The notes beneath the pieces are model-generated. The model made no database searches. It was given only the letters and a program-made list of their open reading frames with translations, and was not told the origin of the DNA. Positions 47,449 to 63,863 of a stretch of 64,000 nucleotides of DNA are shown here, one piece after another. Each line of letters opens with the position of its first letter. The stretch's first letter is position 1. A program made the translations under genes and the position numbers. The DNA comes from a virus: the UHGV virus genome UHGV-1550212; one strand, given 5' to 3'.

Positions 47449-47465
47449 ATATTATTTGTAAAAAT

Positions 47466-47494: not shown

Positions 47495-47499
47495 TTTGA

Positions 47500-47529: not shown

Positions 47530-47649
47530 GTTTATAAAAGTTTTCAAAAGTAGGGTGTTGTTGTTTGAGTAGAGTGTTGCTGATTCTGTCAGCTGTCTTG
47601 TTTGCGTTATCGATTGCTTGCAAACTGTCAGCTGTCATAGAACATCACA

Positions 47650-47685
47650 AAAGCAAGCAGACTACAATTGCAGTCTGCTTGCTTT
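47650..47685 (-). terminator. Intrinsic terminator after 47706..48062
   Basis: AGCAAGCAGACT-loop-AGTCTGCTTGCT, 14-bp stem. Confidence 0.55.
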
Positions 47686-47705
47686 GACATAGTTGTAATG
47701 TGAGT

Positions 47706-48062
47706 CTACTTGCGCATAAACAATGCAGCAAGCCAATTCACTGGCTTGTCAATAAGCTGCTTCCACATAGTCCAATTGTACATGCCATGCGCAAACATTG
47801 TAAGAGCAAACAACAGCATGCACATTGATACAAGCCAATCAGCAAATGGCATATTGCCCCATCGAATGTACTCGAAAATGCCAACTTTAACAAGCTGAGC
47901 AAACAAAATGAGCATTACAGCCATTGCAAGTCGCATCCAGACTACATATTGCTGAGTCTTATCTACAAACTTTGCAATCAATGCTGGCACAAAGTACATA
48001 ATGTACGCAAACAGCAACAAGCAAAAGCCTGCATACAGCAGATTAGAAATAAAAGCTCCCAT
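47706..48062 (-). CDS. Multi-pass membrane protein (118 aa)
   Basis: ATG start; hydrophobic throughout. Confidence 0.55.
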   Translation of the reverse strand: MGAFISNLLYAGFCLLLFAYIMYFVPALIAKFVDKTQQYVVWMRLAMAVMLILFAQLVKVGIFEYIRWGNMPFADWLVSMCMLLFALTMFAHGMYNWTMWKQLIDKPVNWLAALFMRK

Positions 48063-48065
48063 ATT

Positions 48066-48947
48066 TTATCGTTTGAATTTGATGAAGTGTTCAGCATCAA
48101 GGCCCTCAAATATGTACGGGTCAAGAGTTTCCCAGAAGTTTGAGTATGTCGTTGTCTTTGCAATACTTGTCTGCTTTGACAAGTTCATGTTTGGATAGCC
48201 AAGCATTGCATAGTGTCGCTCATATATGTGCATTGACGTTGCATTATGCATATAAGCGCCAAGCTTAAGACCAAGTTCATTTGCGACAAGTTCTTGCAAC
48301 AAAGTGAATGCAAACTGGTCGTTACAGAAGCCCCAAATGACATCATTGCTTCGCATATATGTTGTCAAGTACAGCTTATCACCACGAACATTGAAAACAA
48401 GATTCAATGTGCACGGCATATCTTTGCCAGTGTAGTTTGCATATTGCGGCTCATAAATGCTAATAACTGCTCGTCTTGTGCATTCATGATTTCGCAAACG
48501 TTCAATGACATCTGCAATCTGCTTGTGCCAAATTGCGCCATACTGTGAATTGACATTGACGCCATCATCACTGAACTGCTTCCAACGAGGCAAATAACGT
48601 TCAATGCATTCAACTGCAGGATTGGCTGTCATATACCATGCAAATTCTGCAGCAGCATTGAGCTTTTTCCATGGTCGTACATCAATCTTGATTTGTCGCT
48701 GTGAAGGGTCCTGAATAACTACAGACACATTCAGCAATTCTTTTGTTCGAGTCACTGTTTGTGCATTGTTGCCCTTTGATTCTACAAACTCACCTCTACA
48801 ATGAAGTTCATACAAAATTGAGCGAAATGCTTCTGTTGCAGTGTTTTCAACGATTGTCGTCTGTTGATAGCATAAATTTGACGACAATGCTTCAGCATCA
48901 TTGTACTTTATGCTGTCATTGTCATAAGGTGAATTTTTTGTGTGCAT
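48066..48947 (-). CDS. dCMP hydroxymethylase-like ThyA-fold enzyme (T4 gp42-like)
   Basis: ...DMPCTLNLVF, YMRSNDVIWGFCNDQFAF, SMHIYERHY; Asp at the position where thymidylate synthases have Asn. Start at 48947 chosen; ATG at 49088 also possible (would overlap HAD gene). Confidence 0.65.
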   Translation of the reverse strand: MHTKNSPYDNDSIKYNDAEALSSNLCYQQTTIVENTATEAFRSILYELHCRGEFVESKGNNAQTVTRTKELLNVSVVIQDPSQRQIKIDVRPWKKLNAAAEFAWYMTANPAVECIERYLPRWKQFSDDGVNVNSQYGAIWHKQIADVIERLRNHECTRRAVISIYEPQYANYTGKDMPCTLNLVFNVRGDKLYLTTYMRSNDVIWGFCNDQFAFTLLQELVANELGLKLGAYMHNATSMHIYERHYAMLGYPNMNLSKQTSIAKTTTYSNFWETLDPYIFEGLDAEHFIKFKR

Positions 48948-48972
48948 ATTTTGGGATGTTTGTTTTTTATTA

Positions 48973-50067
48973 TCATACAACGATAGTATCTCGTTTGCAA
49001 TCTGTTTTGTCAAATATTGAACAACAATACGATGCAGATTGTTCTTTGATTTCAAGAGCTTCATCATTATCAAGTGATGAAATGCCATCTATGTATGCTT
49101 TTGCATTGCCAGCAATGTCATCATTTGTTAACAACGCTGCACGACGTTCAGTGCCAAAGAAGCCAAAGCACAATTGATGTTGCAGTGCTTCACGAGAAGT
49201 CTTGTCATCAAACTCTGATTTCATGTGTTGCATAAATTCGACAATATCATCAATGTCGCATTGAGTAAAGTCAATGCACAATTTATGCATGTACTTGAAT
49301 CGTTTGTAGTCTGTTGCAAGAATTTCTGGGTGCACAATGAACAACGTCTTTTTGCTGTCTATTGGATTTGCAATGACTGATGCTTGAACATAATCGACAA
49401 GCATACCAGATTCACGAAGTTGCTCAATTGTTTTGCCAAACACATGCCCAAGCGTGTCATCAAACCACTTCAAGTATGCTTCACTGTCTTCATCTTTTGA
49501 CGCGCCAACAATGTAAATCTCATTGACTCCAAGTGCTTTGAGACGAGTATCAGACAACATAGTATTCAATTGATGCTGCACGTACAGCATTGGGCTGCTA
49601 TGCAAAACCGTTTTAACAATCTCACAAGCAATGTCCATATATGCATAGTCAAGCTTTGCAGATTTTGACACATACACTGCACGTTGCTGCAATGGCTCAA
49701 TTGCCGAGCATGTAGTTACAAAGTTGCCAACACATTCTGCTACTGCAATGTCATGCAAGTCATCTGCAATGTACACAATACTTGACAAGTCATCAAATGT
49801 TTGAACAAGTTGCTGAAGCTTTGTTTTGTAATTGCAGAGCATCAATGACTTGATGTTGCAATTACTTAGCATTGTCTTGATGAGTCGTTGACCTGCTTCA
49901 GTGCTGTCACCAGAAATGACATGCACATCGCAGTCAAACCAGTTCAGCATGTCAATTGCATGCCGAACACCATATTGCATTTGTTTTGCAAACTTACCAG
50001 ATTCATTGAACAGCATTTCACCTGACATAATGCCGTCAAAGTCACATACGATTTGAAGTCTGTCCAT
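48973..50067 (-). CDS. HAD-superfamily phosphatase domain protein with C-terminal domain
   Basis: VCDFDGIM (motif I DxDG), VHVISGDS, IADDLHD. Confidence 0.55.
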   Translation of the reverse strand: MDRLQIVCDFDGIMSGEMLFNESGKFAKQMQYGVRHAIDMLNWFDCDVHVISGDSTEAGQRLIKTMLSNCNIKSLMLCNYKTKLQQLVQTFDDLSSIVYIADDLHDIAVAECVGNFVTTCSAIEPLQQRAVYVSKSAKLDYAYMDIACEIVKTVLHSSPMLYVQHQLNTMLSDTRLKALGVNEIYIVGASKDEDSEAYLKWFDDTLGHVFGKTIEQLRESGMLVDYVQASVIANPIDSKKTLFIVHPEILATDYKRFKYMHKLCIDFTQCDIDDIVEFMQHMKSEFDDKTSREALQHQLCFGFFGTERRAALLTNDDIAGNAKAYIDGISSLDNDEALEIKEQSASYCCSIFDKTDCKRDTIVV

Positions 50068-50071
50068 GCTG

Positions 50072-50404
50072 CTACAATTTTGAAGTTAAGTCAATTCGAA
50101 TTTTGTCTGCATTGCTTTGGTCTACAAATCTGTCATCAAAGAAACATTCAACTACGACAAGCTTCTTTGAATTCACAAATTCAATTAGCGATTTTTGCAT
50201 TGCATCAAGCTGTTTCATGCATTTGCAAAAACTGCTGTATGACATGATTTGCTTTGGTGACATATCAAATGCATCCGCAATTCGCTGATGAGCAATCTTT
50301 TTTGATGTTGCAATAATGACATCTGCTTTGTTATCATTTGCATGATTGCCAAATATCGCAATATGATAAACTTTCATTGTATGAGTGATTTTACTGTTAT
50401 ACAT
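50072..50404 (-). CDS. Hypothetical protein (110 aa)
   Basis: ATG start. Confidence 0.5.
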   Translation of the reverse strand: MYNSKITHTMKVYHIAIFGNHANDNKADVIIATSKKIAHQRIADAFDMSPKQIMSYSSFCKCMKQLDAMQKSLIEFVNSKKLVVVECFFDDRFVDQSNADKIRIDLTSKL

Positions 50405-50431
50405 TTATGTTATATATGCACATTGTGCCAG

Positions 50432-53400
50432 TTAACAAATTGATGATGTGCCATCAGTGTTTGCTACAACTGTCAATGCGCTATCAAACTCATCTTGCTG
50501 TAACACATGGTCAACTATGAGTGTTTTGCGAATTGCAGAAAGCTTAGTAAGCAACTGCATCAACACTTGCTGATAATTGATGGTGTTGACGTCATGCTCA
50601 GCGCCAACAATCTGCCCGTTGCTAAGCTTGCCGCTAATTTCATCAATGAGCAAGATGTTGCCAACTTTGTTTAAGCGTTGAGTCAAAATGAGATGCACGA
50701 TTGCAAGACCTGCGAAAGTCCCTTCCATACCAGACATTTGACTTACACTTCGAATTGACTTCGAGCCCATCAAGTCAATCATCTTTAGCACATTGTTGTC
50801 ATTGATGTCAAAGAACACTCGGTAGTTCAATGAATCAAGCAAATCATTGAGCTGTGCATTCAGTGATGTTGCAATTGCTGCAAAGACATATGAAACTAAG
50901 CCTCGTTTGCTTGTGCACTGCTTATATGCATTGTACACCAAGTTTGCAATGTTCCACTTTTTCGAAGCTTGCAAATCTTTCTTGAGAGCTTCAATTCGCA
51001 CATTGTTTGCTGACAAGTCTGCTTGCATTGTTGCAATTTCTGCATTGATGCTTAGCAGTTTTGAGTTTGCTTCAGTTTCATGCTGCTTAGCATCATCAAT
51101 GTCGACTTGCAATGCAGCGTTTGCCACAATATGCTGCTGAGTTTGCTGTGCATGTTCAAGTGCAAATGCTGCAGCAGTCTTGTCAATCTCAAGTTGTTTA
51201 AGAGTAGACTCATATGATGCTTTCTTATCATATTCTGCTTGAGCAATTTCAAGTTCAGCATTTATTGCAGCCAGTTCTGATTCTACTGCAGATTTTGATT
51301 GCAATACATCTTGCTTTGCTTGTTCAGCTTTACGTTTGATGTCTGCAAGTTGATTTGTGATATCTGCAATTTGCGTTTTGACTGCTTCAACTTCAAGCAA
51401 TGTTGCTGCAGTAGCCATTGGCTGTGCAATGAATGCATCCAAGTCTCTTTGCGCATTGACTACAGTTCTTTGCAAGTCATTAAGCTTTTCTGCATGCATA
51501 TCATATGCAGCTTTATGTGCTGTATTCAGTGCAGCAATTATTGCATTTGAATCTGTGACATCAATGATTGCTGCTTGCAATTGCTCAATCTCATACTTCA
51601 AATTGCCAATTTTGACAACATTCTCATTGAATTGCTCTGTCTTTTGCGCGTATTCTTGACGCAACTTAGCAAGCTCAGTTGACAACCACAGCTTGTATGC
51701 TTGCCCTGTGCCAGATGTCAAATCATTTGTGCACACAGGACATTTATCATTTTCAAGTTGCTTTTGCTTGTCTATAACATTGTCGATGTTTGTTTTTGCA
51801 GCAGATACTTCTGTTCTAAGTGCATTTTGAACAGTGTTGATGTCTTCAATTTGCTTTTGCAAAGCATCTATTTTTGCCCGAGTGTCTGCATTATATGACT
51901 TGCCAAGATTTACCAGCACAGAATCAATGCGCTGCTTTGCTGCATCATATGCAAGCTTTGATTCATCAAGCTTTGTTCTGTACAATGATTCTGCATGCGC
52001 AACTTCTTTCTGCACTTTTGCAGATAGCTCATTCTGTTTTGTAAGCAGCTCAGCATATGTATTGTGCAGCTGTGAGCCAGATGCTATGACATTTGTGTAT
52101 GCTGCATTAGCTTCATTGTCAATATTAGTGAGTTGTTGCTCAATCTGCGCTTTTACTGTTTGCAATTTAGACATGTCTTGCAATGCAAGTGCAGCAATGT
52201 CAAGCTCAACTTTGCGAATCTTTGCAACGATGCTATCGACATTTGCTGTTGCATCTTCTACAGTTAAAATATCTGCAGGAATTTGATGCAGTCTTTTTGA
52301 GAGCTCTTCTACTTTTGCACGTGCTTTTGTAAGTTTTGCAGACCATTCCCTTTGATTATCTTGTCGTAACTGCAAAGAGTCATTGAGTTCATTGCAAGTT
52401 GTATTGAGAGACTCAAGTTCTGCTTTTATTGCGACATCAGTCAATGCGGGCTTACTAAGGCCATCAAACAATGCGGCCTTTGCAGCATCATTAGAATTGC
52501 CCAGTTGCACGAATGTGTTGATGCCAAGAGTATCAAGCAACCAGTCATTCAATGAATTTGAATCCATTGCAATGATTTGGTCAAGTAATGTCTGATTGAT
52601 GCAGACATATCGCGACAATTCCCAGATAGAACCAAAGATTGCGTATAGCGTGTCTTTGATTTCATGCTGTGGCACTACGTAGTCATCTGACAATCTTACA
52701 AGCTGCACAGTCTCATTGACTGCTGACACGTTATCTCGCCATGAGCCATCTGCATTTATTCGAGAGCCCCGTTTGAATCTACGTTCAAGTGTTCGAGTTA
52801 ATTTGTAGTGAACATTTTGACCAGCTACTACATGTACAAATACACAAGATGCTTCAAGCTTATCATATGACTCATTGTCAATCAATTTGTCATTGAAGTA
52901 TGTCAAAGCGTTCTGCTTTGTTGCTGCAGAAGACTGTCCAGCGTCAATAAAGCCAGTCAGCAGCCATTTAATGAGTCTGAAGATTGTTGTTTTGCCATTG
53001 CCGTTGTTGCCTCTAACTTGTGTAAGCTGTGCAAGATTGTCAAAGCTGACATCGACATCTTTCAATGCCATGAACTGATTTGCTTTGACATTTTGAATGA
53101 CGTATTTTGCAACTTCAGTGTCAAAAGACAATTTATCAATTTGCTCATCAATCAATGACTTGAACATGTCAACAAACTGCTGAGCGTCTTCAGTAGCAAC
53201 TATAGCATTGCGTTCAATGTACGCATTGACCCAGTCAAGTGCAGCATCTTTAAGCCATTCAGCAGTTTGAACTTTTTGCAGCAAATTGTCGCCATTTGCA
53301 TCTACAGCATTGATTGAATCAATGACAGCAGAATCATACAGAATGTCAATTGCGGCAACAACGTATGAACTTACAAGATTCTGTGCAATGCGCTCAACAA

Positions 53401-54358
53401 TGCCAGACAGTTCGGGCTTTGTGACCTTTGACTTGATTTTGATTTTGTTGATGCGACCAGGATTGATGAGTGCAATCTTATCTGTTTTGATGTCATTGTC
53501 AATTGTGATTGTATGATAATGCACAAGCTGCTCAAGCGAATGCCACTCTACTACAATTCGCTTGTTGTCAATATCGATGTCAAGCAAGTTGTAGCCATGT
53601 TCTGCAGTGCCCTGTTGCGTTGCAGTGTCATTCAACAAATAGTCGCCTTCACCAAAATCTCTGACAATTGGCGAGCCGCAGTATGTCAATGTCTTGGTGC
53701 CAGAAGTCCATATTGCATGTTTGTGAATATCACCCATTGCAACAAAGTTGCTGTGAAACTGTGTTGCATCTATACGACTGTCATTGTCACCACGAACAAT
53801 GCAGTCATCAAAGTTGACGCAATTCTTTACAGGGTCATGGAACAGCTCAATAACACACATTGATGACAATGCAGCAATCTGCGATTCGTCAAGTGATGCC
53901 CAAGGCGAATATGTGCCACCAGACCACTTCTCATTTTGAGCCCATACTGCAGCAGCAAAACCAGGTGCAAGCAGTTCAACTCTTGAACTGTTGATATACT
54001 TGATTCGCTTGTCATCAATTGCAGTTACAAGCTTGTCAATGCTATCTGTCCACTGCATTTGTGAACCATCACCAGCATCAAATGTGTTATCACGTTGCTT
54101 CAAATCATGATTGCCAGCAGTAATGACAATTTGAAGCTTGTCATTGACTTCAAGCATGCCTTTGAGCAGCTTAACAAACAGCGACTCTTCAAGTGAATTG
54201 CTGTTCCACTGCTCAAACACATCGCCAACAATAAACACAAACTCAACCGACTTTGCTTTGTCAATTAGTTGTTTGTTGATGTGCTCATATTCTACGAAAC
54301 GTCGTAAATGCCCTTGTCGAACATTATATTGAATGTCTGCTATGTGAAGTGCTTTCAT
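50432..54358 (-). CDS. Mre11/SbcD nuclease fused to Rad50/SbcC ATPase in one 1308-aa polypeptide
   Basis: N-terminus HIADIQYN, FIVGDVFE, ITAGNHD, GDIHKH (calcineurin-like phosphoesterase); then VRGNNGNGKTTIF (Walker A), long coiled coil with CPVC hook, ILLIDEISG (Walker B), TLIVDHV. Confidence 0.8.
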   Translation of the reverse strand: MKALHIADIQYNVRQGHLRRFVEYEHINKQLIDKAKSVEFVFIVGDVFEQWNSNSLEESLFVKLLKGMLEVNDKLQIVITAGNHDLKQRDNTFDAGDGSQMQWTDSIDKLVTAIDDKRIKYINSSRVELLAPGFAAAVWAQNEKWSGGTYSPWASLDESQIAALSSMCVIELFHDPVKNCVNFDDCIVRGDNDSRIDATQFHSNFVAMGDIHKHAIWTSGTKTLTYCGSPIVRDFGEGDYLLNDTATQQGTAEHGYNLLDIDIDNKRIVVEWHSLEQLVHYHTITIDNDIKTDKIALINPGRINKIKIKSKVTKPELSGIVERIAQNLVSSYVVAAIDILYDSAVIDSINAVDANGDNLLQKVQTAEWLKDAALDWVNAYIERNAIVATEDAQQFVDMFKSLIDEQIDKLSFDTEVAKYVIQNVKANQFMALKDVDVSFDNLAQLTQVRGNNGNGKTTIFRLIKWLLTGFIDAGQSSAATKQNALTYFNDKLIDNESYDKLEASCVFVHVVAGQNVHYKLTRTLERRFKRGSRINADGSWRDNVSAVNETVQLVRLSDDYVVPQHEIKDTLYAIFGSIWELSRYVCINQTLLDQIIAMDSNSLNDWLLDTLGINTFVQLGNSNDAAKAALFDGLSKPALTDVAIKAELESLNTTCNELNDSLQLRQDNQREWSAKLTKARAKVEELSKRLHQIPADILTVEDATANVDSIVAKIRKVELDIAALALQDMSKLQTVKAQIEQQLTNIDNEANAAYTNVIASGSQLHNTYAELLTKQNELSAKVQKEVAHAESLYRTKLDESKLAYDAAKQRIDSVLVNLGKSYNADTRAKIDALQKQIEDINTVQNALRTEVSAAKTNIDNVIDKQKQLENDKCPVCTNDLTSGTGQAYKLWLSTELAKLRQEYAQKTEQFNENVVKIGNLKYEIEQLQAAIIDVTDSNAIIAALNTAHKAAYDMHAEKLNDLQRTVVNAQRDLDAFIAQPMATAATLLEVEAVKTQIADITNQLADIKRKAEQAKQDVLQSKSAVESELAAINAELEIAQAEYDKKASYESTLKQLEIDKTAAAFALEHAQQTQQHIVANAALQVDIDDAKQHETEANSKLLSINAEIATMQADLSANNVRIEALKKDLQASKKWNIANLVYNAYKQCTSKRGLVSYVFAAIATSLNAQLNDLLDSLNYRVFFDINDNNVLKMIDLMGSKSIRSVSQMSGMEGTFAGLAIVHLILTQRLNKVGNILLIDEISGKLSNGQIVGAEHDVNTINYQQVLMQLLTKLSAIRKTLIVDHVLQQDEFDSALTVVANTDGTSSIC

Positions 54359-54360
54359 AT

Positions 54361-54402
54361 TCTAAATGAGATTTAGATTATGTTCGAAATATATGAGAAC
54401 AT
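54361..54402 (-). promoter_or_regulatory. Leader element (copy 3): TCTAAATGAGATTTAGA + ATGTTCGAAATATATGAGAACAT
   Basis: Immediately upstream of Mre11-Rad50 ATG. Confidence 0.5.
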
Positions 54403-54417
54403 ATATTATATGTTGAT

Positions 54418-54446
54418 ATTGTACAACATATGTTATCATTTTGCAA
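54418..54446 (-). promoter_or_regulatory. Sigma70-like promoter (TTGCAA-N17-TACAAT)
   Basis: Direct reading. Confidence 0.45.
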
Positions 54447-54783
54447 GCATTTTGATGATTGCATCTATCACAGTTTCACTGAGCAAGTAGTAGACAACGC
54501 TTATCAGCAATGATATCAGTACTGCAGCTGTGATAAATTGCAACGCATTCACAATTGCACGCACAAATGTTATCTGCGTGTTGTATGCAAGCACTATGCA
54601 GCATAGCACAATAATGACACACCAGACTACAATTGCATATGCAGGCATCAATGAATTTGTCCATATGCAGTACAATACAGTAATTAGCATCAAAAATGCT
54701 ATTGCTCTGATAACTGACACAATGATGTCTATGTAAGGCTTCATTGCACGCAAATGAACTCTTGGTTTATGTTGCTTCATCAT
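54436..54783 (-). CDS. Multi-pass membrane protein (115 aa)
   Basis: ATG start; hydrophobic. Confidence 0.55.
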   Translation of the reverse strand: MMKQHKPRVHLRAMKPYIDIIVSVIRAIAFLMLITVLYCIWTNSLMPAYAIVVWCVIIVLCCIVLAYNTQITFVRAIVNALQFITAAVLISLLISVVYYLLSETVIDAIIKMLAK

Positions 54784-56012
54784 GACTTTATGTACAATTC
54801 TGCAAGTTGTCTGGTGTACAGTCGTGGATTATGATATGCTTTCCAATACGCAGTAGACTTTATTGCAGCAAGAATTTCATCATAATGTTTGACTGCTTCT
54901 GCTACAACTTCATCAAGCACGCTCAAATCTTCTACACTGACAAGCAACCATTTTTCTACAATATCAATGAACTCCTGATTGCAATTGAAGCCATACTTGT
55001 AGTTGCAAGTATCAAGTACAAGTGGAATGCAATCATTTGTCAATGCTTCAAAAAATCTACGAAGACTGAAACAATTCTCATCATATGATGGAATGCTCAA
55101 TGTAAACTTGGCAGTCTTGATGAGTTGCAAATACTCTTCGTATGGAATCAGAGGACCATTGTGCTTCCATTGATTATTGTGTCGTCTTGTCGTGTACTTG
55201 AACAAAAACTTTGAATTGTCAAGTTCACAAAGATGGTCCATGCGTAAAATGTAGTTATAGCGGTCTCTTCTGTCAGGCCAACTGTCAGTCATCGCAAACA
55301 CAAAGTCTCTTTGCTTGTCACATTTTGCTGACATACCTCTATGCTGACACATGCAATACCAATATTGCTGCGATGGGCTGAACTCAAACTTTGAATGATG
55401 CTCACTTCCATCTTTGCATTGCTGAACATAAATGTTGTCAGGCACAAAGTGAAAATAAAAGTGTCGAATTTGCAAGTCATTGATGTAGTCAAGCTTATGC
55501 TGCAATGGGTCTTCACAGAAATTGTAACACTGAATATGCTTTGCTGCTGCGTACTCAGCAACTATGAACGTGCACATCCATTGCAATGCAATATCTTCAC
55601 TCTTCAAAAAGTTTACAAGCGGCTCATTTGGATGCGCTTTGCATTCATTGAACATTTTGTACCACTTGCATTGCTCCATATCGTACTTTGATACTGTATT
55701 GCCATTAAAGAACGACACAGTGTCAATTTTGAATGCATCAAGTTGTTTATGCACAATGTCAAGTGCTTGTGCGTATGTGATTGTCTCATCAGACATTATC
55801 TGCGCAAACTTGATTGGATGCGCATGCAAATTTGCGATAGTGTCTGCCGACATTTTACGCTGTGTGTGATAATCGACATACAAAAACTGACACTTGTCTG
55901 TAAGCAATTCAAGCATTGCTACAGATTTCCATCGAATTGCTTGAAAGAAATTGAAGTGTGCAGTTTGAAAGATGAGATGCGTAGGTTTATCAGAATGAGT
56001 CAAAGTTTGCAT
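54780..56012 (-). CDS. Glycosyltransferase-like protein (GT-B type), cassette 1
   Basis: C-terminal ...IPSYDENCFSLRRFFEALTNDCIPLV (E...EA..x.P motif); paralog of 59060..60616. Confidence 0.45.
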   Translation of the reverse strand: MQTLTHSDKPTHLIFQTAHFNFFQAIRWKSVAMLELLTDKCQFLYVDYHTQRKMSADTIANLHAHPIKFAQIMSDETITYAQALDIVHKQLDAFKIDTVSFFNGNTVSKYDMEQCKWYKMFNECKAHPNEPLVNFLKSEDIALQWMCTFIVAEYAAAKHIQCYNFCEDPLQHKLDYINDLQIRHFYFHFVPDNIYVQQCKDGSEHHSKFEFSPSQQYWYCMCQHRGMSAKCDKQRDFVFAMTDSWPDRRDRYNYILRMDHLCELDNSKFLFKYTTRRHNNQWKHNGPLIPYEEYLQLIKTAKFTLSIPSYDENCFSLRRFFEALTNDCIPLVLDTCNYKYGFNCNQEFIDIVEKWLLVSVEDLSVLDEVVAEAVKHYDEILAAIKSTAYWKAYHNPRLYTRQLAELYIKS

Positions 56013-57175
56013 GGACAAATGTCGCAGTTATGTTGATGTTTGTGTTTATTTATGAAGTCATATGTCACTGCAAAAAAGTGCTTTGCAATGTCATATCGAG
56101 TTTTCAAATATGCTGCTTGGCGTTCACAAAACGCTGCATAAATGTCTGGGTGTCGTTTGAATGCAGCAATGCGTTGCTGTACTTGTTCTGCAGAATGTAC
56201 ATATGACACTTTGCTCAAATATGCATCATCTGCAAATAATCGTCTGTCTTTGTCAACTGCGCAATCAACAAAAGTTGCAATTCGTGCAACAATGGCTTCA
56301 CCAACACGATTTGGCATCAACCCATATTGCTCATATTGTTGGTCACCGATAGCAATGTGCGCTGCTGCATATGACATTGCATATGGCACACTATAAAATG
56401 GCACACTAAAATCAAATGAGCAATTTGACTGTAGTAGTTGCGTTTGTGCATCAGACAATCTACTTGTCAAGTTGCCTGTATGTTTGTGCTCACCAAGAAA
56501 ACTTGAGCGACAACCTGAATCTACATAGTATCGAATGACTTTGTTTATGCGACTGTCAGATAGCATATGCCAATCTCTTGTAGCATATATCAAGTCTACT
56601 GTTTTTGCACCAATATGACGAGGCTCTATCGCAACATTGCTGTATGTTGGCAGCATGAACAATGGCAGCCATTTGACATTGTTGAACACTGAATGTTCAT
56701 TTGACAAATTCATGCACTGGCTAAGTTCAAGTACTGGCTCATCATACACGCCATGCAGTTCAACTCTGCCTGCATGCACAAAGTTGACACGCTTAAATGG
56801 AAATCGCATATCAGTGCAAACCGTCATTCTTGCTGCAGTAGACATTCGCCACATAGCATGCAGCTTAACAACTGCTTCGGCTTGAGGTCGAGGCAGCATA
56901 TTTAGCAAATCAATCCAGCCACCCCACAAAATCCAAACATCATTTGAACAGATGTTGAATTGCAAACTCAATATGTCTTCTACTGTTGCAGCAATGATGT
57001 CATGCCCATTGATGCTTGCAAGGTGCTTTCGTTGATTTGCAATAAGAATGACTTGACTGAACGGAGACTCTGGAAATGACACAAGCGCCTTTGCAAACAA
57101 CACGGGTTCTTGTGATACCAAGTTGTTTGAGTATGGGTCGATTATGCAATCAAGCTTGTGTATGAAAAGTCTCAT
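56000..57175 (-). CDS. Possible DNA glycosyltransferase, cassette 1 partner
   Basis: ...ILWGGWID...TVCTDMRFPF; paralog of 60613..61779; resemblance to T4 beta-glucosyltransferase is from memory and weak. Confidence 0.4.
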   Translation of the reverse strand: MRLFIHKLDCIIDPYSNNLVSQEPVLFAKALVSFPESPFSQVILIANQRKHLASINGHDIIAATVEDILSLQFNICSNDVWILWGGWIDLLNMLPRPQAEAVVKLHAMWRMSTAARMTVCTDMRFPFKRVNFVHAGRVELHGVYDEPVLELSQCMNLSNEHSVFNNVKWLPLFMLPTYSNVAIEPRHIGAKTVDLIYATRDWHMLSDSRINKVIRYYVDSGCRSSFLGEHKHTGNLTSRLSDAQTQLLQSNCSFDFSVPFYSVPYAMSYAAAHIAIGDQQYEQYGLMPNRVGEAIVARIATFVDCAVDKDRRLFADDAYLSKVSYVHSAEQVQQRIAAFKRHPDIYAAFCERQAAYLKTRYDIAKHFFAVTYDFINKHKHQHNCDICPCKL

Positions 57176-57906
57176 TTTGCAGACGATTCAAAAAATTTGT
57201 AGACATCACAGTTAGCAATGTGGTCATTCCAAGCATCTTCAGAGTCTGCAACAAAGCCACAATGACAGCGTTTTGGCTGCCAAACTGGTTCAACTACTGC
57301 AGGCATTGCTTCTTCAATAGTGTTTGCAGGTTCATTATCTGCTGGCAATACTTCAACGTCTTCAACTTGTGCTGCATCTTGTTGTGCACGCTGCTCAATG
57401 ACATTGCCCTCAAAGTCAAACTGAATGCCAGCTTGTTCTGCTTTTGTACGATTGTTACGAGCTACGAACAAATACGCAAAGATGAATTCGACAAGCGCTA
57501 TGGCAAGTGACTTCAGTGCATTGACAAGAAGCATGATGCCCGTTGACAAGTGGCCGTCAAAGCTCAAAAATACGAACACGCATGTAAAGCATGACATAAA
57601 CACTGCAATCAGTGGAATGTTCTTGTATTTTGGCAACAAATCAGAGTTGACTGATGTAAGCAACACAACGAATTGATAACCTATTGCAAGCCAATAGTCG
57701 CCAAACACTGCATAGATATGCGTAGTGATGCCAATAAGAAATGTGATAGTCACAATCATAATGAGCAACACACTTGTCAGAAAGTCTGCAATAGAATTGC
57801 TGAGCTTGTCATACCAGTGTTTGTTGACAATTGATGTGTTGGCTACGCGCACTTTACTAAGTGCATCTATGCCGCTTTTGATATTTGATTGTGCTTTCAT
57901 ACACAT
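57172..57906 (-). CDS. Multi-pass membrane protein with C-terminal Cys/His cluster (244 aa)
   Basis: Hydrophobic N-terminal half; C-terminus ...RCHCGF...HIANCD. Confidence 0.6.
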   Translation of the reverse strand: MCMKAQSNIKSGIDALSKVRVANTSIVNKHWYDKLSNSIADFLTSVLLIMIVTITFLIGITTHIYAVFGDYWLAIGYQFVVLLTSVNSDLLPKYKNIPLIAVFMSCFTCVFVFLSFDGHLSTGIMLLVNALKSLAIALVEFIFAYLFVARNNRTKAEQAGIQFDFEGNVIEQRAQQDAAQVEDVEVLPADNEPANTIEEAMPAVVEPVWQPKRCHCGFVADSEDAWNDHIANCDVYKFFESSAK

Positions 57907-57912
57907 ATAATG

Positions 57913-58050
57913 TTATATCATATCTACACACAAAGCAAATGCTACTGCAAGTGCAGCCATAATTGCATATACGACTATCGATGCAATATAATCTGATTCA
58001 GGATTCCACTTATCAGGTGTGTTAAGCTTGTGATACTTGTCTCGTCTCAT
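57913..58050 (-). CDS. Small tail-anchored membrane peptide (45 aa), not in ORF track
   Basis: MRRDKYHKLNTPDKWNPESDYIASIVVYAIMAALAVAFALCVDMI; 7 nt upstream of next gene; preceded by terminator hairpin. Confidence 0.3.
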   Translation of the reverse strand: MRRDKYHKLNTPDKWNPESDYIASIVVYAIMAALAVAFALCVDMI

Positions 58051-58065
58051 CTTGAGTCAAAAAAT

Positions 58066-58109
58066 GATGGCTGCTGCTACATTTTGTGAAATCATGTGCA
58101 GCAGCCATC
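58066..58109 (-). terminator. Strong hairpin with U6 tract (terminator or attenuator)
   Basis: GATGGCTGCTGCTACAT-loop-ATGTGCAGCAGCCATC with one bulge; A6 on plus at 58059-58064. Confidence 0.55.
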
Positions 58110-58164
58110 TGGCAGGTTTCTTGCTTTGTAAAGCTTGGATAGAGGATGGATTTTATATGTTGAT

Positions 58165-58193
58165 ATTGTACAACATGCAAAATGCATTTGCAT
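58165..58193 (-). promoter_or_regulatory. Sigma70-like promoter (ATGCAA-N17-TACAAT)
   Basis: Direct reading; proximal of a tandem pair. Confidence 0.4.
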
Positions 58194-58211
58194 TTTGATA
58201 CAACATGCATT

Positions 58212-58240
58212 TTGATACAACATATATTGTCATTTTGCAC
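58212..58240 (-). promoter_or_regulatory. Sigma70-like promoter (GTGCAA-N17-TATCAA)
   Basis: Direct reading; distal of tandem pair. Confidence 0.35.
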
Positions 58241-58445
58241 AGTCTGAGGCAATCAAATCTTTGTCAAAGCATTCATCTATAATGTCTTCAATAAGATACG
58301 CTTCGACATTGTTAAGCTTCAAGATATCTACGAGTTTTGCTTTGATATCGCAAGCTAATGCAGATTCAACTGTATGCAATATGACTGATGATGCGACATG
58401 CTTGTCTGTCATCATTTGTAATTGCTGTGGTGTTACTCTACTCAT
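58230..58445 (-). CDS. Hypothetical protein (71 aa)
   Basis: ATG start, ATGA overlap with kinase gene. Confidence 0.45.
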   Translation of the reverse strand: MSRVTPQQLQMMTDKHVASSVILHTVESALACDIKAKLVDILKLNNVEAYLIEDIIDECFDKDLIASDCAK

Positions 58446-59014
58446 GCGCCAAGTTCAGCTAAGCATTTTAGCACATTGTCTTGCAGACTTACATTGTTGT
58501 CGATTTCGACAATATGCAATGGTGAGTTCTTTCGCCACTCATCATATGCAGCAATCATTTTATTGCGTTTGTTGACATCAATGTTGACATCGCCACAAAA
58601 GTTATCAACAAAATCTGGTGCAACATCACGCTTGCATAAGAACACTATATGCGGCAATGTTGCAAGCTTCTTTTCATATGCTTCAAAGAATGCTTGATGC
58701 TTATCAGTGTGCAACTCTTTGTAAAGCGTTGTGTTAAAGATTTGATGTGTGATGAACGAACGGTCACACAAAAATGTTGCTTTGCCAAAGCCTTTAGAGT
58801 CATTTCCAATGAACTCTAAGAAGAAGCGCCAATCATAAAAGAACGCTTCATTGAGGTCCCAAGGTTCGGGCATTGGGTCATCACCTGACTCATGCTGTTG
58901 CCACCAAGAACGAGATGTTCGTTTGCAATTGATAAACCATGGGCGCCACTTCATCAATTCATTGATGAGTGTTGTTTTGCCTGAAGCTTCTACACCTTCA
59001 AATATCGCTATCAT
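58442..59014 (-). CDS. P-loop nucleotide kinase (thymidylate kinase-like)
   Basis: IAIFEGVEASGKTTLI (Walker A). Confidence 0.65.
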   Translation of the reverse strand: MIAIFEGVEASGKTTLINELMKWRPWFINCKRTSRSWWQQHESGDDPMPEPWDLNEAFFYDWRFFLEFIGNDSKGFGKATFLCDRSFITHQIFNTTLYKELHTDKHQAFFEAYEKKLATLPHIVFLCKRDVAPDFVDNFCGDVNIDVNKRNKMIAAYDEWRKNSPLHIVEIDNNVSLQDNVLKCLAELGA

Positions 59015-59039
59015 TGTGTATTATGTTTGATTTTTGATT

Positions 59040-59068
59040 ACAGTACAACGTAGTTATGCTCATTGCAC
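59040..59068 (-). promoter_or_regulatory. Weak sigma70-like promoter (GTGCAA-N17-TACTGT)
   Basis: Direct reading. Confidence 0.3.
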
Positions 59069-60616
59069 TTCTACGAATGGCTCTTTCAACACAAAGCTGT
59101 CACCATTGCAACATGCGGCTGAGCCATCGTCTGCATCAAGTGCACATGACATATCAGACTTGCAGAACTTGCAATATAAACATGACCATGCATGACTCAT
59201 GAAGTTGTTTGCTTCACAAATTGCGCAACGCTCATGCATAAGTGCATTGTCGCAATTATCACAAGACTTCTTGATTGGCACAGTTTTGTTGATGTATGCA
59301 AGATGCAATGCAATATCATACACAAAGTCACCCGTATATTGCTGAATGAAATCAGTATGCCACAACTCTTTTAACAATTGTGCATGTCTATATGGCTGAA
59401 CAATGTCTTCAAGATGCTGCAAGTCATCATCGCTAACCATGAGCTTCTTAATGACAAATTGTTTGAACTGTGGCCATCTGTCAAACATATAGAGTTTGCA
59501 TGAGTTGTGCACAAGTGGAACACAGCCAAGCACAATGCTTTCACAGAATCTACGCAAACTAAAACAGTTTGCATCATATGACGGCACAATCAATGTGAAT
59601 CTGCTATGCTTGATGAGTTCAAGGTATGTGTCATATGGCAGTAGCTTATCTGACAATTGCTGTTGTTGTTTGTCTCTGCTGAAAAATCTGAACACAATAC
59701 CCTTGTCAATTGCATCTTGATTGTGCAGATGCATGAGTTTGTTGATGAGTTCTGTGCGTTCAGTTTTGTCTCGCCAAGTATTCGTCAATGCAAATGCAAA
59801 ATTCAGTCGCTTGTCATCAAACGTCGCTTCAATATCATTCCAAGTTTTGTCATGCAAATACCAGTATTGCTGTGATGGGCACCATCCATAATATGCAATA
59901 GCATCTTGTTCTGCTGTAACGTCATACACATATGCAGAATTGTATTCAAGGCCAAGCCTTTTGACGTTGTTGCAGTCATGAAAGTACCAATGCTGCACTT
60001 TGAATATCTTTGATGCACTGAATGCGCTTTCATATGGCCCTGAATAGCGATAGTCAATGTAATTGAGCTTGTGCTGCAATGGGTCTTCGACAAAGTTGTT
60101 TATGACTGTGCCTTGTTGTTTGCCCTTAGTCTTGCGAGCATTCAATGCAACATTGTATTGCATGATGACTGACAGCATCTCATACACTACATACATGAGT
60201 GCTTTGTAGACTGAGCCTGCTGCGTCAATTAGTGGCAAATCACGTTTGACTGATGTAGCGCCAAATGTCTTGCAATATGCAGAAAATGTGTCAAGTTCTG
60301 CTTGCTGAAATGAATTGCATGCACCATTGAATATGTTGAATGTTGCAATGTAGCTCATATTGCAAGATGTCATTGACATATCAAGACGCTTCATAATGTC
60401 GACAATGCGACATTGAGCAAAATCTGACACATCAACATATTTGACATGATGGCCTGATGTAGTCAAGCCATCTGCGACATCTTTCATCTGTGGCACAAAG
60501 CCTACAACAATGAATAAGTCATCTTTGTTTGCTCGTTCAAACATTGCTGCACTTTTCCAAGTCAATGAATTGAAAAAGTCTATGTAGCCAGTTTGAGTGA
60601 TTATATGCGTTCTCAT
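59060..60616 (-). CDS. Glycosyltransferase-like protein (GT-B type), cassette 2
   Basis: ...VPSYDANCFSLRRFCESIVLGCVPLV; N-terminus also parallels 54780..56012. Confidence 0.45.
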   Translation of the reverse strand: MRTHIITQTGYIDFFNSLTWKSAAMFERANKDDLFIVVGFVPQMKDVADGLTTSGHHVKYVDVSDFAQCRIVDIMKRLDMSMTSCNMSYIATFNIFNGACNSFQQAELDTFSAYCKTFGATSVKRDLPLIDAAGSVYKALMYVVYEMLSVIMQYNVALNARKTKGKQQGTVINNFVEDPLQHKLNYIDYRYSGPYESAFSASKIFKVQHWYFHDCNNVKRLGLEYNSAYVYDVTAEQDAIAYYGWCPSQQYWYLHDKTWNDIEATFDDKRLNFAFALTNTWRDKTERTELINKLMHLHNQDAIDKGIVFRFFSRDKQQQQLSDKLLPYDTYLELIKHSRFTLIVPSYDANCFSLRRFCESIVLGCVPLVHNSCKLYMFDRWPQFKQFVIKKLMVSDDDLQHLEDIVQPYRHAQLLKELWHTDFIQQYTGDFVYDIALHLAYINKTVPIKKSCDNCDNALMHERCAICEANNFMSHAWSCLYCKFCKSDMSCALDADDGSAACCNGDSFVLKEPFVEVQ

Positions 60617-61779
60617 GATTTGAATGTTTGTTCAAGAATTGTATAGCACTGTGCAATCATTGTTGCAAGAGCTTTTTGCTGAAGCTGTTTGCAATTTGAA
60701 GATATTGTGTATTGCTGACGCTCAGTTGTAGTACTGCTTAATGTCGCAAATTGCAGGTACTCATCTTCTGACATGATATCAGCAAACAATGCAGACAATT
60801 CATAATCTACAATGACATTTGAGCAGTTTGCAAGTACGCCTTCAACCCATCGATTTGGCAACAAACATGCTTGCACATACAATGAATCGCCGACTACAAG
60901 ATTGCACATTGACTGCGACATTACATACGTCATCATGTCATATGGCACTTTGTACTTAAGTGTGAAGTTTTGTGCTGCTGACTTAATTGCTTGCAGAATT
61001 GTGTCATCAAGATATGATGTTATAAGGCAAGTATTGTATGCCTGCATAATGTAACGCTCAATCACGCTTCTACGATACTCGTCAAGATATGTGAAACCTG
61101 CACAACTTGCACAACATGCATATTGCTGCTTTATGTCAGCAAAGCTACACACATGCGCTTCAATTGCATTTTGCATTGTTGCTTGTCGTTTGAGCAATCT
61201 TGGCTCTTTAATGCATTGAAGCTTCAATGCATTGACTGCTGCAATGATTTGCAATGGCACAAACACGCATTGAGACTCATCAAGCCAAGCATACTTGAGA
61301 TTTTTATGTTGACACAGATGCGTAATGTTGTCTTTTTGTGATTCTAAGTACTCTTTGTAATTATGCAATCGCTTTGTCAATGTGCACTCTTTGTCAAAAT
61401 CAAATCGCAAATCAGTTGTTAGTGTAAATTTGCGAACATTTGACAAGCACCATGCTTTGAATGCATTCCACAGAACATCTTGCTGAAATTCTGAACAATG
61501 TTCAAGAGCAGCCTTTGAGCCCTGCCAGAATATTGCGCAATCATCTGATTTTGCACACTTCAGCATATCTTGCCATGCATGTATGCTATTGATGATATGC
61601 ACTTTATTATGCACAAGCTCATTAAGTGTTGCATGCTTGTTCTCAGGGTCGCCAAACACGTATACTGTATCAAACATTGTTTGAACAAACCCTGCAAATG
61701 CAATGGGTTCTGTATGTTTAAGATGCTGTATGTCTGAACGCACACATGTGTCAAATTTCAAAATGAAGAGTTTGCTCAT
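60613..61779 (-). CDS. Possible DNA glycosyltransferase, cassette 2 partner
   Basis: ...IFWQGSKAA...TLTTDLRFDF; paralog of 56000..57175. Confidence 0.4.
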   Translation of the reverse strand: MSKLFILKFDTCVRSDIQHLKHTEPIAFAGFVQTMFDTVYVFGDPENKHATLNELVHNKVHIINSIHAWQDMLKCAKSDDCAIFWQGSKAALEHCSEFQQDVLWNAFKAWCLSNVRKFTLTTDLRFDFDKECTLTKRLHNYKEYLESQKDNITHLCQHKNLKYAWLDESQCVFVPLQIIAAVNALKLQCIKEPRLLKRQATMQNAIEAHVCSFADIKQQYACCASCAGFTYLDEYRRSVIERYIMQAYNTCLITSYLDDTILQAIKSAAQNFTLKYKVPYDMMTYVMSQSMCNLVVGDSLYVQACLLPNRWVEGVLANCSNVIVDYELSALFADIMSEDEYLQFATLSSTTTERQQYTISSNCKQLQQKALATMIAQCYTILEQTFKS

Positions 61780-62416
61780 ATGCTTTGCAATTATCTATTA
61801 CATGTTGATATTGTACTTCATCTATGATGTGATTTGCAATGACACCATATGACGTGTCATACATTGGCATCTTCTCATATGACAATGCTGCGTCAAGATT
61901 GCATATCACATAATTGCAATGCACAATGTCATCTACATTGTCACTAACTGCTACGATATTGACGCAATTTGCAAGAAATGCATCATCAAAGTCTACTTGA
62001 TTGCATGCAACCTCATAATCTGCAGCACTTCTTGGGTACCAATATAACTCAATGCCGGCACTACTAAGTAGTCGCAAGCCATCTATGTGATGATACAAGT
62101 CAACAAAATGCACTTGCTTAACGCCTGCTTGCAAAATAAGCTTTGCGCAATCAATGCATGGACTATATGTTACATATAGCACTGCGTCATTTGCAGTCGC
62201 ATTGCCATATTTGCACAGCTTCATCAATGCATTTGATTCTGCATGCAAAACTTCTTTGTTGGTTTTGATGCCTGCTGATGTTGCATGTTCACAACAATTT
62301 GACATGCCAGTTGGCATGCCATTGTAGCCATCTGAAATTATGCAGCCATCTTTTACAAGCAATGCGCCGACTTTTGCTCGCTGAGCATGTGAATTTAATG
62401 ACCAGAGCTCAGCCAT
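61751..62416 (-). CDS. dCMP deaminase
   Basis: HAESNAL (H-A-E zinc motif), SPCIDCAKLI (PCxxC); start chosen at MAELW (62416), ATG at 62476 also in frame. Confidence 0.75.
   Translation of the reverse strand: MAELWSLNSHAQRAKVGALLVKDGCIISDGYNGMPTGMSNCCEHATSAGIKTNKEVLHAESNALMKLCKYGNATANDAVLYVTYSPCIDCAKLILQAGVKQVHFVDLYHHIDGLRLLSSAGIELYWYPRSAADYEVACNQVDFDDAFLANCVNIVAVSDNVDDIVHCNYVICNLDAALSYEKMPMYDTSYGVIANHIIDEVQYQHVIDNCKAYEQTLHFEI
61810..61839 (-). promoter_or_regulatory. Sigma70-like promoter (TTGCAA-N18-TACAAT) inside 3' end of deaminase gene
   Basis: Direct reading. Confidence 0.4.
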
Positions 62417-62480
62417 TTTAAGATATATGAGATTTCGTTGAAACCACTTTGTTTCAGACCAAGTTAGCCATTTCATATGC

Positions 62481-63863
62481 TTATAGTGAATTTATGATTT
62501 TGCTGAAGTCTGTTACAATGTTTGAATGCAACTCAATGAGATAGTTGTCTTGCAATGTCATAAGCTCATCAAGTTCATCTACACTTAATGACTTGAAGAC
62601 TTCTGCACAATGCTTGGCATTTTTGATGTGTGCGACTTTATGATACTTGATAAAGTCAGGACACACACAATTATTCACGTACATACAAGGCAAGCCTGCA
62701 AGCATTGATTCAGTTGCTCTGAATGTAATTGCGTTGCATTGTTTCATATTCTCTTCACACACAATGTATGCAAAATCGAACTGTGACAAGTATGTTAACA
62801 TGTCAAAATACTTGATTGTGCCATCATAGACATGTGGCATATCAATGTCAATATTGCCGACAACATGAGTTTCGATGTCTGCGCAGCCAAGCAAATCAAT
62901 GACTTCTTGTTTGCGTTCAGCACACATGTCATTCCAAGCCACCATCGGCATTGCAGTAGTCAACTTGCCTGATTGCAATTTTGCTAAACGTTTTTCATTA
63001 TGTGATGCATACAATGGAATGCCTTCAAGTCTTGCATGCTGAATTGCGTTGACATTGATTTCTGTCAACATTGACAACGCATTATGTATGTTCTGCGCTT
63101 GTGTGACAACTGTCATCTTTTTGCAGTGCAATCTAAAGTTTGCAATGTGTGGCACGAGTCGTAAATCATACCATAGCCATACAATGTCGCCCTTCCATGA
63201 TTCAATGAGCTGCTTGTGCTGTTTGTAGATGACTGACTGACTCATCGAGTCATTCATTGCTGAGCATACAATGTACAACACACCATATTTGTCAATTGAG
63301 TGCTGCACATAGTCAGCTGAGCAGCATAGCACATCTTTGTCGAAAAGTTTTGGGTCATGCACTTCTGCATCATCTACAATAAGATGCGCCTTGTATTGAT
63401 GCCGCTTTGTTACATCAATGATGCGAGCAATTGCGAAACATTCTCTGCTTTGAATGTCTGTCTTGTCTTGTCGCAGCTGGTCTTGTGTTCGTACTGGATA
63501 CGCAGGTTTCAGTATTACAGGCACAAAATGTGTTTTTGCAGAATATGGTGCATCTACTGCAGCAAACTCCGCGTTGCATCGTTGTGAATGCAGATGTCGT
63601 GCATATGATTGCAACAATTCATGAATCATTGCAATATACTCTTCCAATTCAAACAGCTCGTGTTCAGTTGCGTTTGTTATGTCAACTACGACAGTTTGTC
63701 GCACAATTGGATACACACAAATAACGTAATCATTATATGGCAGTGGAATGCCTATAAATGTTGAGCATCTGTTTCGAAGCCATGCAATGCAATCAACATC
63801 AAACACAATTTCATATTGCTGCTGCAAAGCATTTAATTGCGCTATAATCAAATCATTGTGCAT
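62481..63863 (-). CDS. Glycosyltransferase-like protein (GT-B type), 460 aa
   Basis: ...ITFRATESMLAGLPCMYV (E...G.P motif). Confidence 0.4.
   Translation of the reverse strand: MHNDLIIAQLNALQQQYEIVFDVDCIAWLRNRCSTFIGIPLPYNDYVICVYPIVRQTVVVDITNATEHELFELEEYIAMIHELLQSYARHLHSQRCNAEFAAVDAPYSAKTHFVPVILKPAYPVRTQDQLRQDKTDIQSRECFAIARIIDVTKRHQYKAHLIVDDAEVHDPKLFDKDVLCCSADYVQHSIDKYGVLYIVCSAMNDSMSQSVIYKQHKQLIESWKGDIVWLWYDLRLVPHIANFRLHCKKMTVVTQAQNIHNALSMLTEINVNAIQHARLEGIPLYASHNEKRLAKLQSGKLTTAMPMVAWNDMCAERKQEVIDLLGCADIETHVVGNIDIDMPHVYDGTIKYFDMLTYLSQFDFAYIVCEENMKQCNAITFRATESMLAGLPCMYVNNCVCPDFIKYHKVAHIKNAKHCAEVFKSLSVDELDELMTLQDNYLIELHSNIVTDFSKIINSL

Follow-up and report, generated by a model that had tools for sequence, protein, structure and literature searches.

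A predicted promoter, a probable terminator hairpin and a small open reading frame at the head of a five-gene unit in an uncultured jumbo phage

The locus and its phage

The window analysed here is a stretch of 64,000 nucleotides of the virus genome UHGV-1550212, in which all but one of the long ORFs are located on the minus strand. An intergenic region at 58229..58051 separates an ORF of 71 amino acids (aa) from an ORF of 45 aa, and the following features were located in and around this region.

58445..58230, minus strand: 71-aa ORF closing the upstream unit, also a called gene in relatives
58240..58212, minus strand: P1, with a GTGCAA -35 box, a 17-nt spacer and TATCAA instead of TACAAT (9.3 bits)
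58222..58176, minus strand: promoter-spacer insert of 47 nt, strain-variable
58193..58165, minus strand: predicted promoter P2, with ATGCAA, 17 nt and TACAAT (37.2 bits)
58158..58110, minus strand: leader of about 49 nt, unstructured, C-rich and G-poor
58109..58066, minus strand: terminator hairpin with 16 pairs, one bulged A and an 11-nt loop
58064..58059, minus strand: U6 tract, preceded by one A (58065) and followed by G
58050..57913, minus strand: 45-aa ORF, with a basic N-terminus and one C-terminal hydrophobic helix
57906..54436, minus strand: rest of the unit, encoding proteins of 244, 391, 412 and 115 aa

The 71-aa ORF gave no family match in protein-profile searches, and its single-sequence structure model, consisting of one long helix and two short ones, was uninformative (pLDDT 79). 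The 45-aa ORF starts in the context AAGATG, which is common to other genes. Further downstream, the model of the 244-aa protein, which has a pLDDT of 58 and is too poor for a fold search, comprises four membrane helices with a CxC...HxxxC tail at the C-terminus. Profile searches classified the 391-aa protein as beta-glucosyltransferase-like and the 412-aa protein as GT47-like; the 115-aa ORF comes after these. Between 58150 and 54500 no site scored more than 3 bits with the promoter matrix described below, the next promoter being located at 54448. The preliminary description had limited the control exerted at this locus to a pair of membrane-protein genes. This was too narrow, since with no promoter before 54448 the unit comprises five genes (58050..54436). 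Because the ATG of the 45-aa ORF lies 8 nt past the U-tract, any mRNA of this ORF that has a 5' UTR must cross the hairpin.

Protein profiles identified a tail sheath, a portal, a prohead protease, a helicase, a family-B DNA polymerase and an SbcC-like nuclease in the window. A conserved protein of 1113 aa matches only jumbo myoviruses, with about 25-31% identity. These include the Chryseobacterium phages MA9V-1 and MA9V-2, the 'Sphingomonas' phage PAU, the Tenacibaculum phages PTm1, PTm5 and pT24, a Flavobacterium phage and the Prevotella Lak phages. A DNA-level search of a phage collection gave no match, and the nearest public sequence is IMGVR_UViG_3300045988_149023 with about 94.5% nucleotide identity. 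We regard the phage as a virulent-looking jumbo myovirus. None of the 39 ATG-start genes of the window has a Shine-Dalgarno motif, and the start regions are A-rich, often with AAGATG. The lack of Shine-Dalgarno sequences combined with A-rich starts is a pattern of the Bacteroidota (PMC7366714). The host is probably a member of the Bacteroidota, because Shine-Dalgarno motifs are missing and because the relatives of the phage infect Chryseobacterium, Tenacibaculum, Flavobacterium and Prevotella.

The region 43784..63863 forms a dense cluster of genes for nucleotide and DNA modification. It encodes a thymidylate synthase (44842..43784), a divergent ThyA-like protein that is possibly a pyrimidine hydroxymethylase (49088..48066), a dCMP deaminase (62476..61751), a dNMP-kinase-like protein (59014..58442) and four glycosyltransferase-like proteins (61779..60613, 60616..59060, 57175..56000 and 56018..54780), one of which resembles the beta-glucosyltransferase of T4. 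The composition of this cluster suggests that the phage has glycosylated hydroxymethyl-pyrimidine DNA.

The hairpin among the terminators of the phage

Read along the minus strand, the hairpin consists of a 5' arm (58109..58094), a loop (58093..58083) and a 3' arm that includes the bulged A (58082..58066), the sequence being GATGGCTGCTGCACAT, the 11-nt loop and ATGT-A-GCAGCAGCCATC. Its folding energy is about -26 to -28 kcal/mol. Compared to dinucleotide shuffles this corresponds to a z-score of -4.9 in a context of 131 nt and of -5.2 in a context of 103 nt, and no shuffle was equally stable. When both strands of the window were compared, the hairpin at 58109..58066 was the most stable of those located beside T-runs of at least 5. 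Eight of the 12 pairs of the basal stem are G-C, and the stem is followed by one A and then by U6, which is the arrangement of an intrinsic terminator; only on the coding strand does a U-tract follow the hairpin. Between the U-tract and the ATG at 58050 lie 8 nt, GACTCAAG, and the start codon region of the 45-aa ORF is unpaired in the predicted fold. The hairpin at 58066..58109 with its 16-bp stem and U6, 8 nt from the ATG, had been noted before and was confirmed by both sequence and folding. Likewise, the previously reported gap of about 60 nt between promoter and hairpin is accurate, as 55 nt separate the P2 -10 box, which ends at 58165, from the hairpin, which begins at 58109. A generic terminator scan missed this hairpin because its loop exceeds 8 nt.

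Altogether, ten sites with a clean hairpin and a T-run were found on the coding strand of the window.

About 58064, 47650, 43735, 39283, 34004, 30616, 22499, 18156, 9094 and 3656, minus strand: starts of the T-runs of the ten terminators

Nine of these sit about 15-50 nt after a stop codon, the one at 58064 being the exception. Where a promoter of the family described below is located close by, it usually follows the terminator, as is the case for the pairs 47650 and 47496, 43735 and 43699, 30616 and 30267, 22499 and 22482, and 18156 and 18148. The promoter precedes the terminator only once in the window, namely at 58195 and 58064. The CTG/CAG-repeat stem of the 58109 hairpin recurs at 22528..22500 and 34030..34005, both of which show the canonical order of stop codon, terminator, and promoter or gene, and the 5' flank ACCTGCC(A)GATG is shared with the terminator at 22528 (flank at 22536). 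As far as stem and flank can tell, the 58109 hairpin clearly belongs to the same type as the other terminators of the phage. It differs from them in loop length, which is 10-14 nt versus 3-5 nt, and in the A spacer. With a d'Aubenton-Carafa-type score, which serves as a ranking only, it obtained -12.5, the second-lowest value of the ten; three of the ten terminators, this one included, had negative scores and the other seven ranged from +13 to +40. The long loop, the A spacer and the second-lowest score fit partial rather than complete termination. No strong terminator was found between the promoters at 63976, 63923 and 61840 and the hairpin.

Some further properties of these terminators may be mentioned. 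In nine of the ten the T-run is directly followed by G (TTTTTG), which is far above the expectation from a G content of about 20%. TTTG is also the core of the Bacteroidota -33/-7 elements, and the terminator tails might double as promoter elements. The 7-mer ACCTGCC occurs three times on the minus strand of the window and not at all on the plus strand; as part of ACCTGCC(A)GATG it runs into the 5' arm of two of the CTG/CAG-stem terminators (58117..58111 and 22536..22530, minus strand). When the terminator at 22528..22500 was compared with that of an IMG/VR relative (L018:220-248), the stems were the same and the 5-nt loop was reverse-complemented (AACAT to ATGTT), which amounts to a loop inversion.

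Promoter family, strain-variable insert and conservation

P2 belongs to a phage-specific promoter motif of 45 nt, (T/G)TGCAAAATG-N10-TGTTGTACAATATCAACATATAA, the blocks of which follow each other in the order TTGCAAAATG, TGTTGTACAAT and ATCAACATATAAT over about 45 nt. There are 16 matches on the minus strand of the window and none on the plus strand, compared to about 0.1 per shuffle.

63976, 63923, 61840, 58195, 54448, 50423, 49002 and 47496, minus strand: promoter family sites
43699, 30267, 28381, 26684, 26288, 23464, 22482 and 18148, minus strand: promoter family sites, continued

Nearly all of these are located at gene 5' ends or directly after terminators, and a few lie within the upstream ORF, shortly 5' of the next start. 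The sites at 63976 and 63923, which are 53 nt apart, represent a genuine tandem pair. The spacing of the motif is sigma-70-like, yet it is unlike the Bacteroidota housekeeping consensus TAnnTTTG/TTTG (PMC7366714). In the transcribed region of the family, a -10-like TATAA(A/T) block (TATAAA/TAAAAT) is present at about +2..+9. A generic sigma-70 scan listed neither P1 nor P2, and its total count was not above that of shuffles.

The bit scores were obtained with a 45-nt matrix built without the tested site. Besides its -35 and -10 boxes, P2 has the TGTTG upstream block and the ATCAACATATAA downstream block of the family. We infer promoter activity from this match to the family, and the predicted transcription start lies near 58158. 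In P1, the terminal T is absent from TATCAA, and the region does not contain two complete -35/-10 pairs. Two tandem promoters had initially been proposed here. With 9.3 bits for P1 versus 37.2 bits for P2, and with a single promoter in the relatives, this proposal did not hold: P2 appears to be the one credible promoter, and P1 a promoter remnant rather than part of a tandem pair.

The relatives offer an explanation for this arrangement. Seven near-identical genomes were compared (the window, L014, L015, L003, which is the same as L004, L005, L022 and L023), together with one intermediate relative (L006), the contigs of the relatives being from ERZ19289353, SRR16279997, SRR15853011 and IMG 3300045988. 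In the window, the insert combines a 30-nt module with an exact tandem duplication of 17 nt (58223..58207 and 58206..58190). It carries a perfect 9-bp inverted repeat, CAAAATGCA-AA-TGCATTTTG, at 58197..58178 and is flanked by ATGTTGTA direct repeats. It is absent from L005, L022 and L023, the promoter of which is unbroken (GTGCAAAATGACAATATATGTTGTACAATATC) and scores 47.6 bits in its L005 form. Immediately 5' of ATGTTGTACAAT, L014 and L015 have an additional 30 nt; L003 and L004 have an additional 46 nt. Judged by these alignments, a single ancestral promoter was split by a strain-variable palindromic insert of 30-47 nt, P1 being the 5' half of that promoter, and the promoters appear to be in tandem because of this split. 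The insert would have provided P2 with a new -35 box (ATGCAA), leaving the old one 47 nt upstream. The TGA stop codon of the 71-aa ORF falls within the -35 box of the ancestral promoter. An alternative view of the 17-nt repeats as an origin or as iterons was rejected, since the repeats are missing in three close relatives.

A module of about 30 nt, (A)TGTTGTA-TCAAAATGCAA(A/G)T(G/A)CATTTTGC, with the 9-bp inverted repeat as its core, is found in an equivalent position, directly 5' of ATGTTGTACAAT, in two promoters (window 58222..58176; L001:7440-7545; L001:3690-3745; L003:6470-6550). The window has it in promoter A only, the IMG/VR relative and L003 in both A and B, and L005 in neither. It looks like a portable operator, a mini-insertion or the result of gene conversion between promoter copies.

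Variation among the seven close genomes is unevenly distributed over the hairpin. Only 1 of 33 stem positions is variable, versus 5 of 11 loop positions plus the loop length (Fisher p = 0.002). The single stem change is a G-to-A replacement in L022 (about 1520) that results in a C.A mismatch, and L023 (about 2880) has T9 where the others have T6. Between the P2 core and the ATG, not counting the loop, 5 of 114 positions are variable versus 61 of 548 in the flanking coding DNA (p = 0.026). For the segment from 58175 to 58110 the count is 3 of 66, and the P2 -10 block with the sequence downstream of it shows no variation. The 45-aa ORF is open in five of the six close relatives, the exception being L015 (2.7x coverage), with a change from TGG to TGA at L015:833-835. 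Its changes among relatives are mostly conservative replacements in the hydrophobic C-terminal segment.

The intermediate relative L006, the membrane protein of which is 62% identical, has a promoter site of 21 bits that overlaps the stop codon of a 72-aa gene. This site is followed by about 35 unalignable nt and then by AACCTGCCA (L006:1233-1241), the sequence that makes up the last 9 nt of the leader in the window (ACCTGCC being 58117..58111) and the sole part of the leader that is kept. The lower stem of the L006 hairpin is the same (TGGCTGCTG / CAGCAGCCA); the upper stem is different, yet it still pairs. T6 comes after the hairpin, and 18 nt further an ORF of 49 aa begins that is homologous to the 45-aa ORF, the two having MR.D...KW...SDY.ASIV.Y in common. 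This would mean that structure rather than sequence is conserved in the hairpin, with the single replacement of the upper stem as modest support for covariation. Since the same order is kept in the close genomes and in L006, the putative promoter-terminator-small-ORF unit is a conserved feature of the clade.

In the distant relatives L007-L013, with about 50% identity, the upstream context differs and a hairpin of the 58109 type is absent; a -10-like block upstream of their membrane gene was rejected, as it had no promoter-matrix support. In L008-L011 (about 2870-2935), a perfect hairpin of about 21 bp that has no T-run is located after the stop codon upstream of the membrane-protein gene, and in L008 its loop contains a tandem duplication. 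The contigs with homologues of the kinase, L020 and L021, stop short of the promoter-hairpin region. A pattern match in metagenomes, L016, was set aside as a high-G+C chance match upstream of a YafY-like regulator.

Within the leader, searches for a second structure gave little. When the leader and the 5' arm were folded without the 3' arm, no stable antiterminator fold was found (-6.3 kcal/mol, z = +1.27). The sole competing structure is a mini-hairpin of 3-4 bp (GCC/GGC) that uses the first stem bases and is also possible in L006. No Rfam family matched at the gathering or a permissive threshold, no aptamer-like structure was seen, and a tRNA scan gave no match. A leader peptide starting from the ATG at 58107, in a 28-codon frame through the hairpin, was rejected, as indels in the loop put L005 out of frame and the ATG is missing from L006. 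The lack of a competing leader fold fits a constitutive rather than a switching element.

Possible roles of the hairpin and comparison with known systems

With moderate confidence we interpret the hairpin and U6 as an intrinsic terminator that would end the upstream operon and also attenuate P2, the next five genes being expressed by read-through. We infer both termination and a read-through fraction from the features described above. The terminator (58109..58059) would then have an unusual position, in that it follows the promoter of the next unit instead of preceding it, and it could have two jobs. It would end the upstream unit, which would be driven from the promoters at 63976, 63923 and 61840 and which comprises the dCMP deaminase gene, two glycosyltransferase-like genes, the kinase-like gene and the 71-aa ORF. 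In addition, it would stop most P2 transcripts after about 100 nt: with P2 upstream and U6 8 nt before the ATG, the default RNA would have this length and the downstream genes would need read-through. The genes from 58050 to 54436 would then be made only by polymerases that read through, and the short RNA from P2 to the terminator would be a by-product. As a result, these genes may be expressed at a low and fixed level, or with a delay should a phage factor suppress termination at a later stage. The preliminary description had envisaged a small RNA of about 100 nt or a regulated attenuator for the pair of membrane-protein genes downstream. The underlying anatomy of promoter, hairpin and ORF stands, its order being kept in L006 and unique in the window, whereas neither the regulated switch nor the trans-acting small RNA found support. 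Some observations do not favour the proposed leader terminator, namely the stem mismatch in L022, the difference of the promoter motif from the Bacteroidota housekeeping consensus, and the option of a transcription start inside or after the hairpin from a promoter class beyond the 16-site family.

Regulation of the terminator would take the form of an antitermination switch, with efficient termination by default that a phage factor suppresses at a set time, so that expression of the membrane and glycosyltransferase genes would be delayed. Such a factor might target the polymerase, in the manner of Q, N or P7, or it might resemble RAT/LicT and bind the conserved ACCUGCC-GAU-GGC element, which overlaps the base of the 5' arm. 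We consider such a switch unlikely, though it is the leading alternative to the leader terminator and would assign a function to the conserved ACCTGCC element. The promoter-proximal terminator is indeed conserved, and the -10-like block at +2..+9 is found at the position of the sigma-dependent pause elements in lambdoid late promoters (PMC9388147, PMC6606751), but many members of the promoter family carry this block and lack a terminator. Similarly, AACCTGCCA is the sole leader segment kept in L006 and can form the mini-hairpin of 3-4 bp; however, the ACCTGCC flank is also present 5' of the ordinary end-of-operon terminator at 22528, and the mini-hairpin alone is no match for a stem of -26 kcal/mol. 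A boxB-type recognition site is argued against by the free variation of the loop. Among ten neighbouring proteins, Pfam, PHROG and NCBIfam revealed no antiterminator family (Q, N or other), although a non-homologous analogue could take this role. A classical regulated attenuator lacks support as well, in view of the missing alternative fold (z = +1.27), the broken leader ORF in L005 and the lack of an Rfam match. The more specific idea that the hairpin is the operator of a factor-dependent antitermination switch, with a phage protein acting at ACCUGCC-GAU-GG or at the palindrome-bearing promoter, is decidedly unlikely. If there were a switch, it would time the membrane and glycosyltransferase operon within the DNA-hypermodification cluster, and the portable palindromic module of 30 nt in two promoters would be a transferable regulatory cassette.

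The remaining explanations appear improbable, each for its own reasons. A trans-acting phage small RNA, directed against phage or host mRNAs and running from P2 to the terminator over about 100 nt, would have the typical bacterial architecture, in which a cognate promoter is followed by a 5' region free of structure and by a Rho-independent terminator. In Bacteroides, small RNAs built in this way are known, both 5'-UTR-derived and intra-operonic ones (PMC7366714), and among the close relatives the leader is conserved above the neighbouring coding DNA. In L006, however, this conservation is reduced to the 9 nt beside the hairpin, AACCTGCCA; duplexes of the 49-nt leader with 54 start regions of the phage window were no better than those of shuffled leaders (p = 0.37), and there is no Rfam match. 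It is equally doubtful that the hairpin is an RNA processing or stability element, such as an RNase III-type site or a protective hairpin, or that it modulates translation of the 45-aa ORF. The bulged stem of 16-17 bp with its large variable loop, as opposed to the compact 8-13-bp tetraloop-type terminators elsewhere, would suit a processing or stability element, but U6 is confined to the coding strand, is retained in L006 and is extended to T9 in L023, and the stem composition and 5' flank are those of canonical terminators. As for translation, the hairpin comes to within 16 nt of the ATG and the genome has no Shine-Dalgarno sites, but the start codon region is unpaired. There is likewise little probability that the hairpin is a plain operon-end terminator without attenuation, with P2 inactive or irrelevant, or its motif no promoter, and with the genes using another promoter class. 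The insertions that scramble the promoter region in several strains may reflect a relaxed constraint on its upstream half, and our promoter analysis covers one motif family only, with middle or late classes outside it. On the other hand, the P2 -10 block and the sequence downstream of it are invariant in the seven close genomes, L006 has a matching site, and all sites of the family are on the coding strand, nearly all of them at gene 5' ends or after terminators. Moreover, the U-tract and the ATG leave only 8 nt for the start of another promoter.

The leader terminator that we favour has a well-known counterpart. At pR' of phage lambda, transcription meets the short-range terminator tR', which gives rise to the 6S RNA; a small gene lies upstream, and the downstream genes start with a small membrane protein. 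The locus described here resembles pR'-tR' in having a promoter with a strong intrinsic terminator close by, a short default RNA and downstream genes that would need read-through, as well as a small gene directly upstream of the promoter and a small membrane protein as the first one downstream. It differs in that no Q homologue was found in the neighbouring proteins and in that its terminator would also close the upstream operon. Furthermore, its downstream genes are glycosyltransferase-like or membrane genes in a nucleotide-modification cluster with no recognisable lysis cassette, and the locus belongs to a jumbo myovirus that looks virulent and whose host is Bacteroidota-like. The mechanism of Q antitermination at lambdoid late promoters has been described (PMC9388147, PMC6606751). 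With respect to Q-type elements, there is a palindrome in the -35/spacer region of P2, but it is absent in three relatives.

Internal partial terminators, such as those involved in delayed-early read-through in T4 or tR1 in lambda, set expression ratios or delayed-early timing. Our locus is similar to these in that the terminator lies in a co-directional cluster and the genes downstream of it have no promoter of their own after it, and the sub-optimal shape of the hairpin suggests leakiness. It is different in having a dedicated promoter just upstream, such that locally started transcripts would be attenuated as well. Leader attenuators and riboswitches (trp, pyrBI, T-box, RAT/LicT and those in Rfam) share with it an intrinsic terminator between promoter and first codon, whereas the phage leader has no antiterminator helix, conserved leader peptide, aptamer-like structure or Rfam match. 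With the 5'-UTR and intra-operonic small RNAs of Bacteroides thetaiotaomicron (PMC7366714) it shares a predicted start of its own, a predicted length of about 100 nt, a single-stranded 5' part, a terminator hairpin and a position before a coding sequence within a gene cluster, but not a conserved seed or a predicted target in the window. By analogy, the locus would thus work like pR'-tR' of lambda, and the tests that could be run place it outside the leader attenuators and the Bacteroides small RNAs.

To our knowledge, almost nothing has been charted of how jumbo phages of Bacteroidota-like hosts control transcription. The locus and its surroundings offer a family of 16 promoter sites, ten intrinsic terminators and one conserved promoter-terminator-gene unit. 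Should read-through be regulated, this unit would offer a first entry point to the temporal control of gene expression in this group of phages; if it is unregulated, the unit would represent a tidy case of constitutive attenuation of membrane-protein genes.

Elsewhere in the window, the ORFs at 26229..24724 and 22430..21138 both match DNA polymerase families (PHROG DNA polymerase and, for residues 153-353, Pfam DNA_pol_B). With several genes between them, they may represent a split family-B polymerase. Lastly, the minus-strand gene array shows a gap of 1.26 kb at 9167..7905, with the terminator 9119..9095 at its upstream end, and this gap holds the only long plus-strand ORF (7954..8622, 222 aa).
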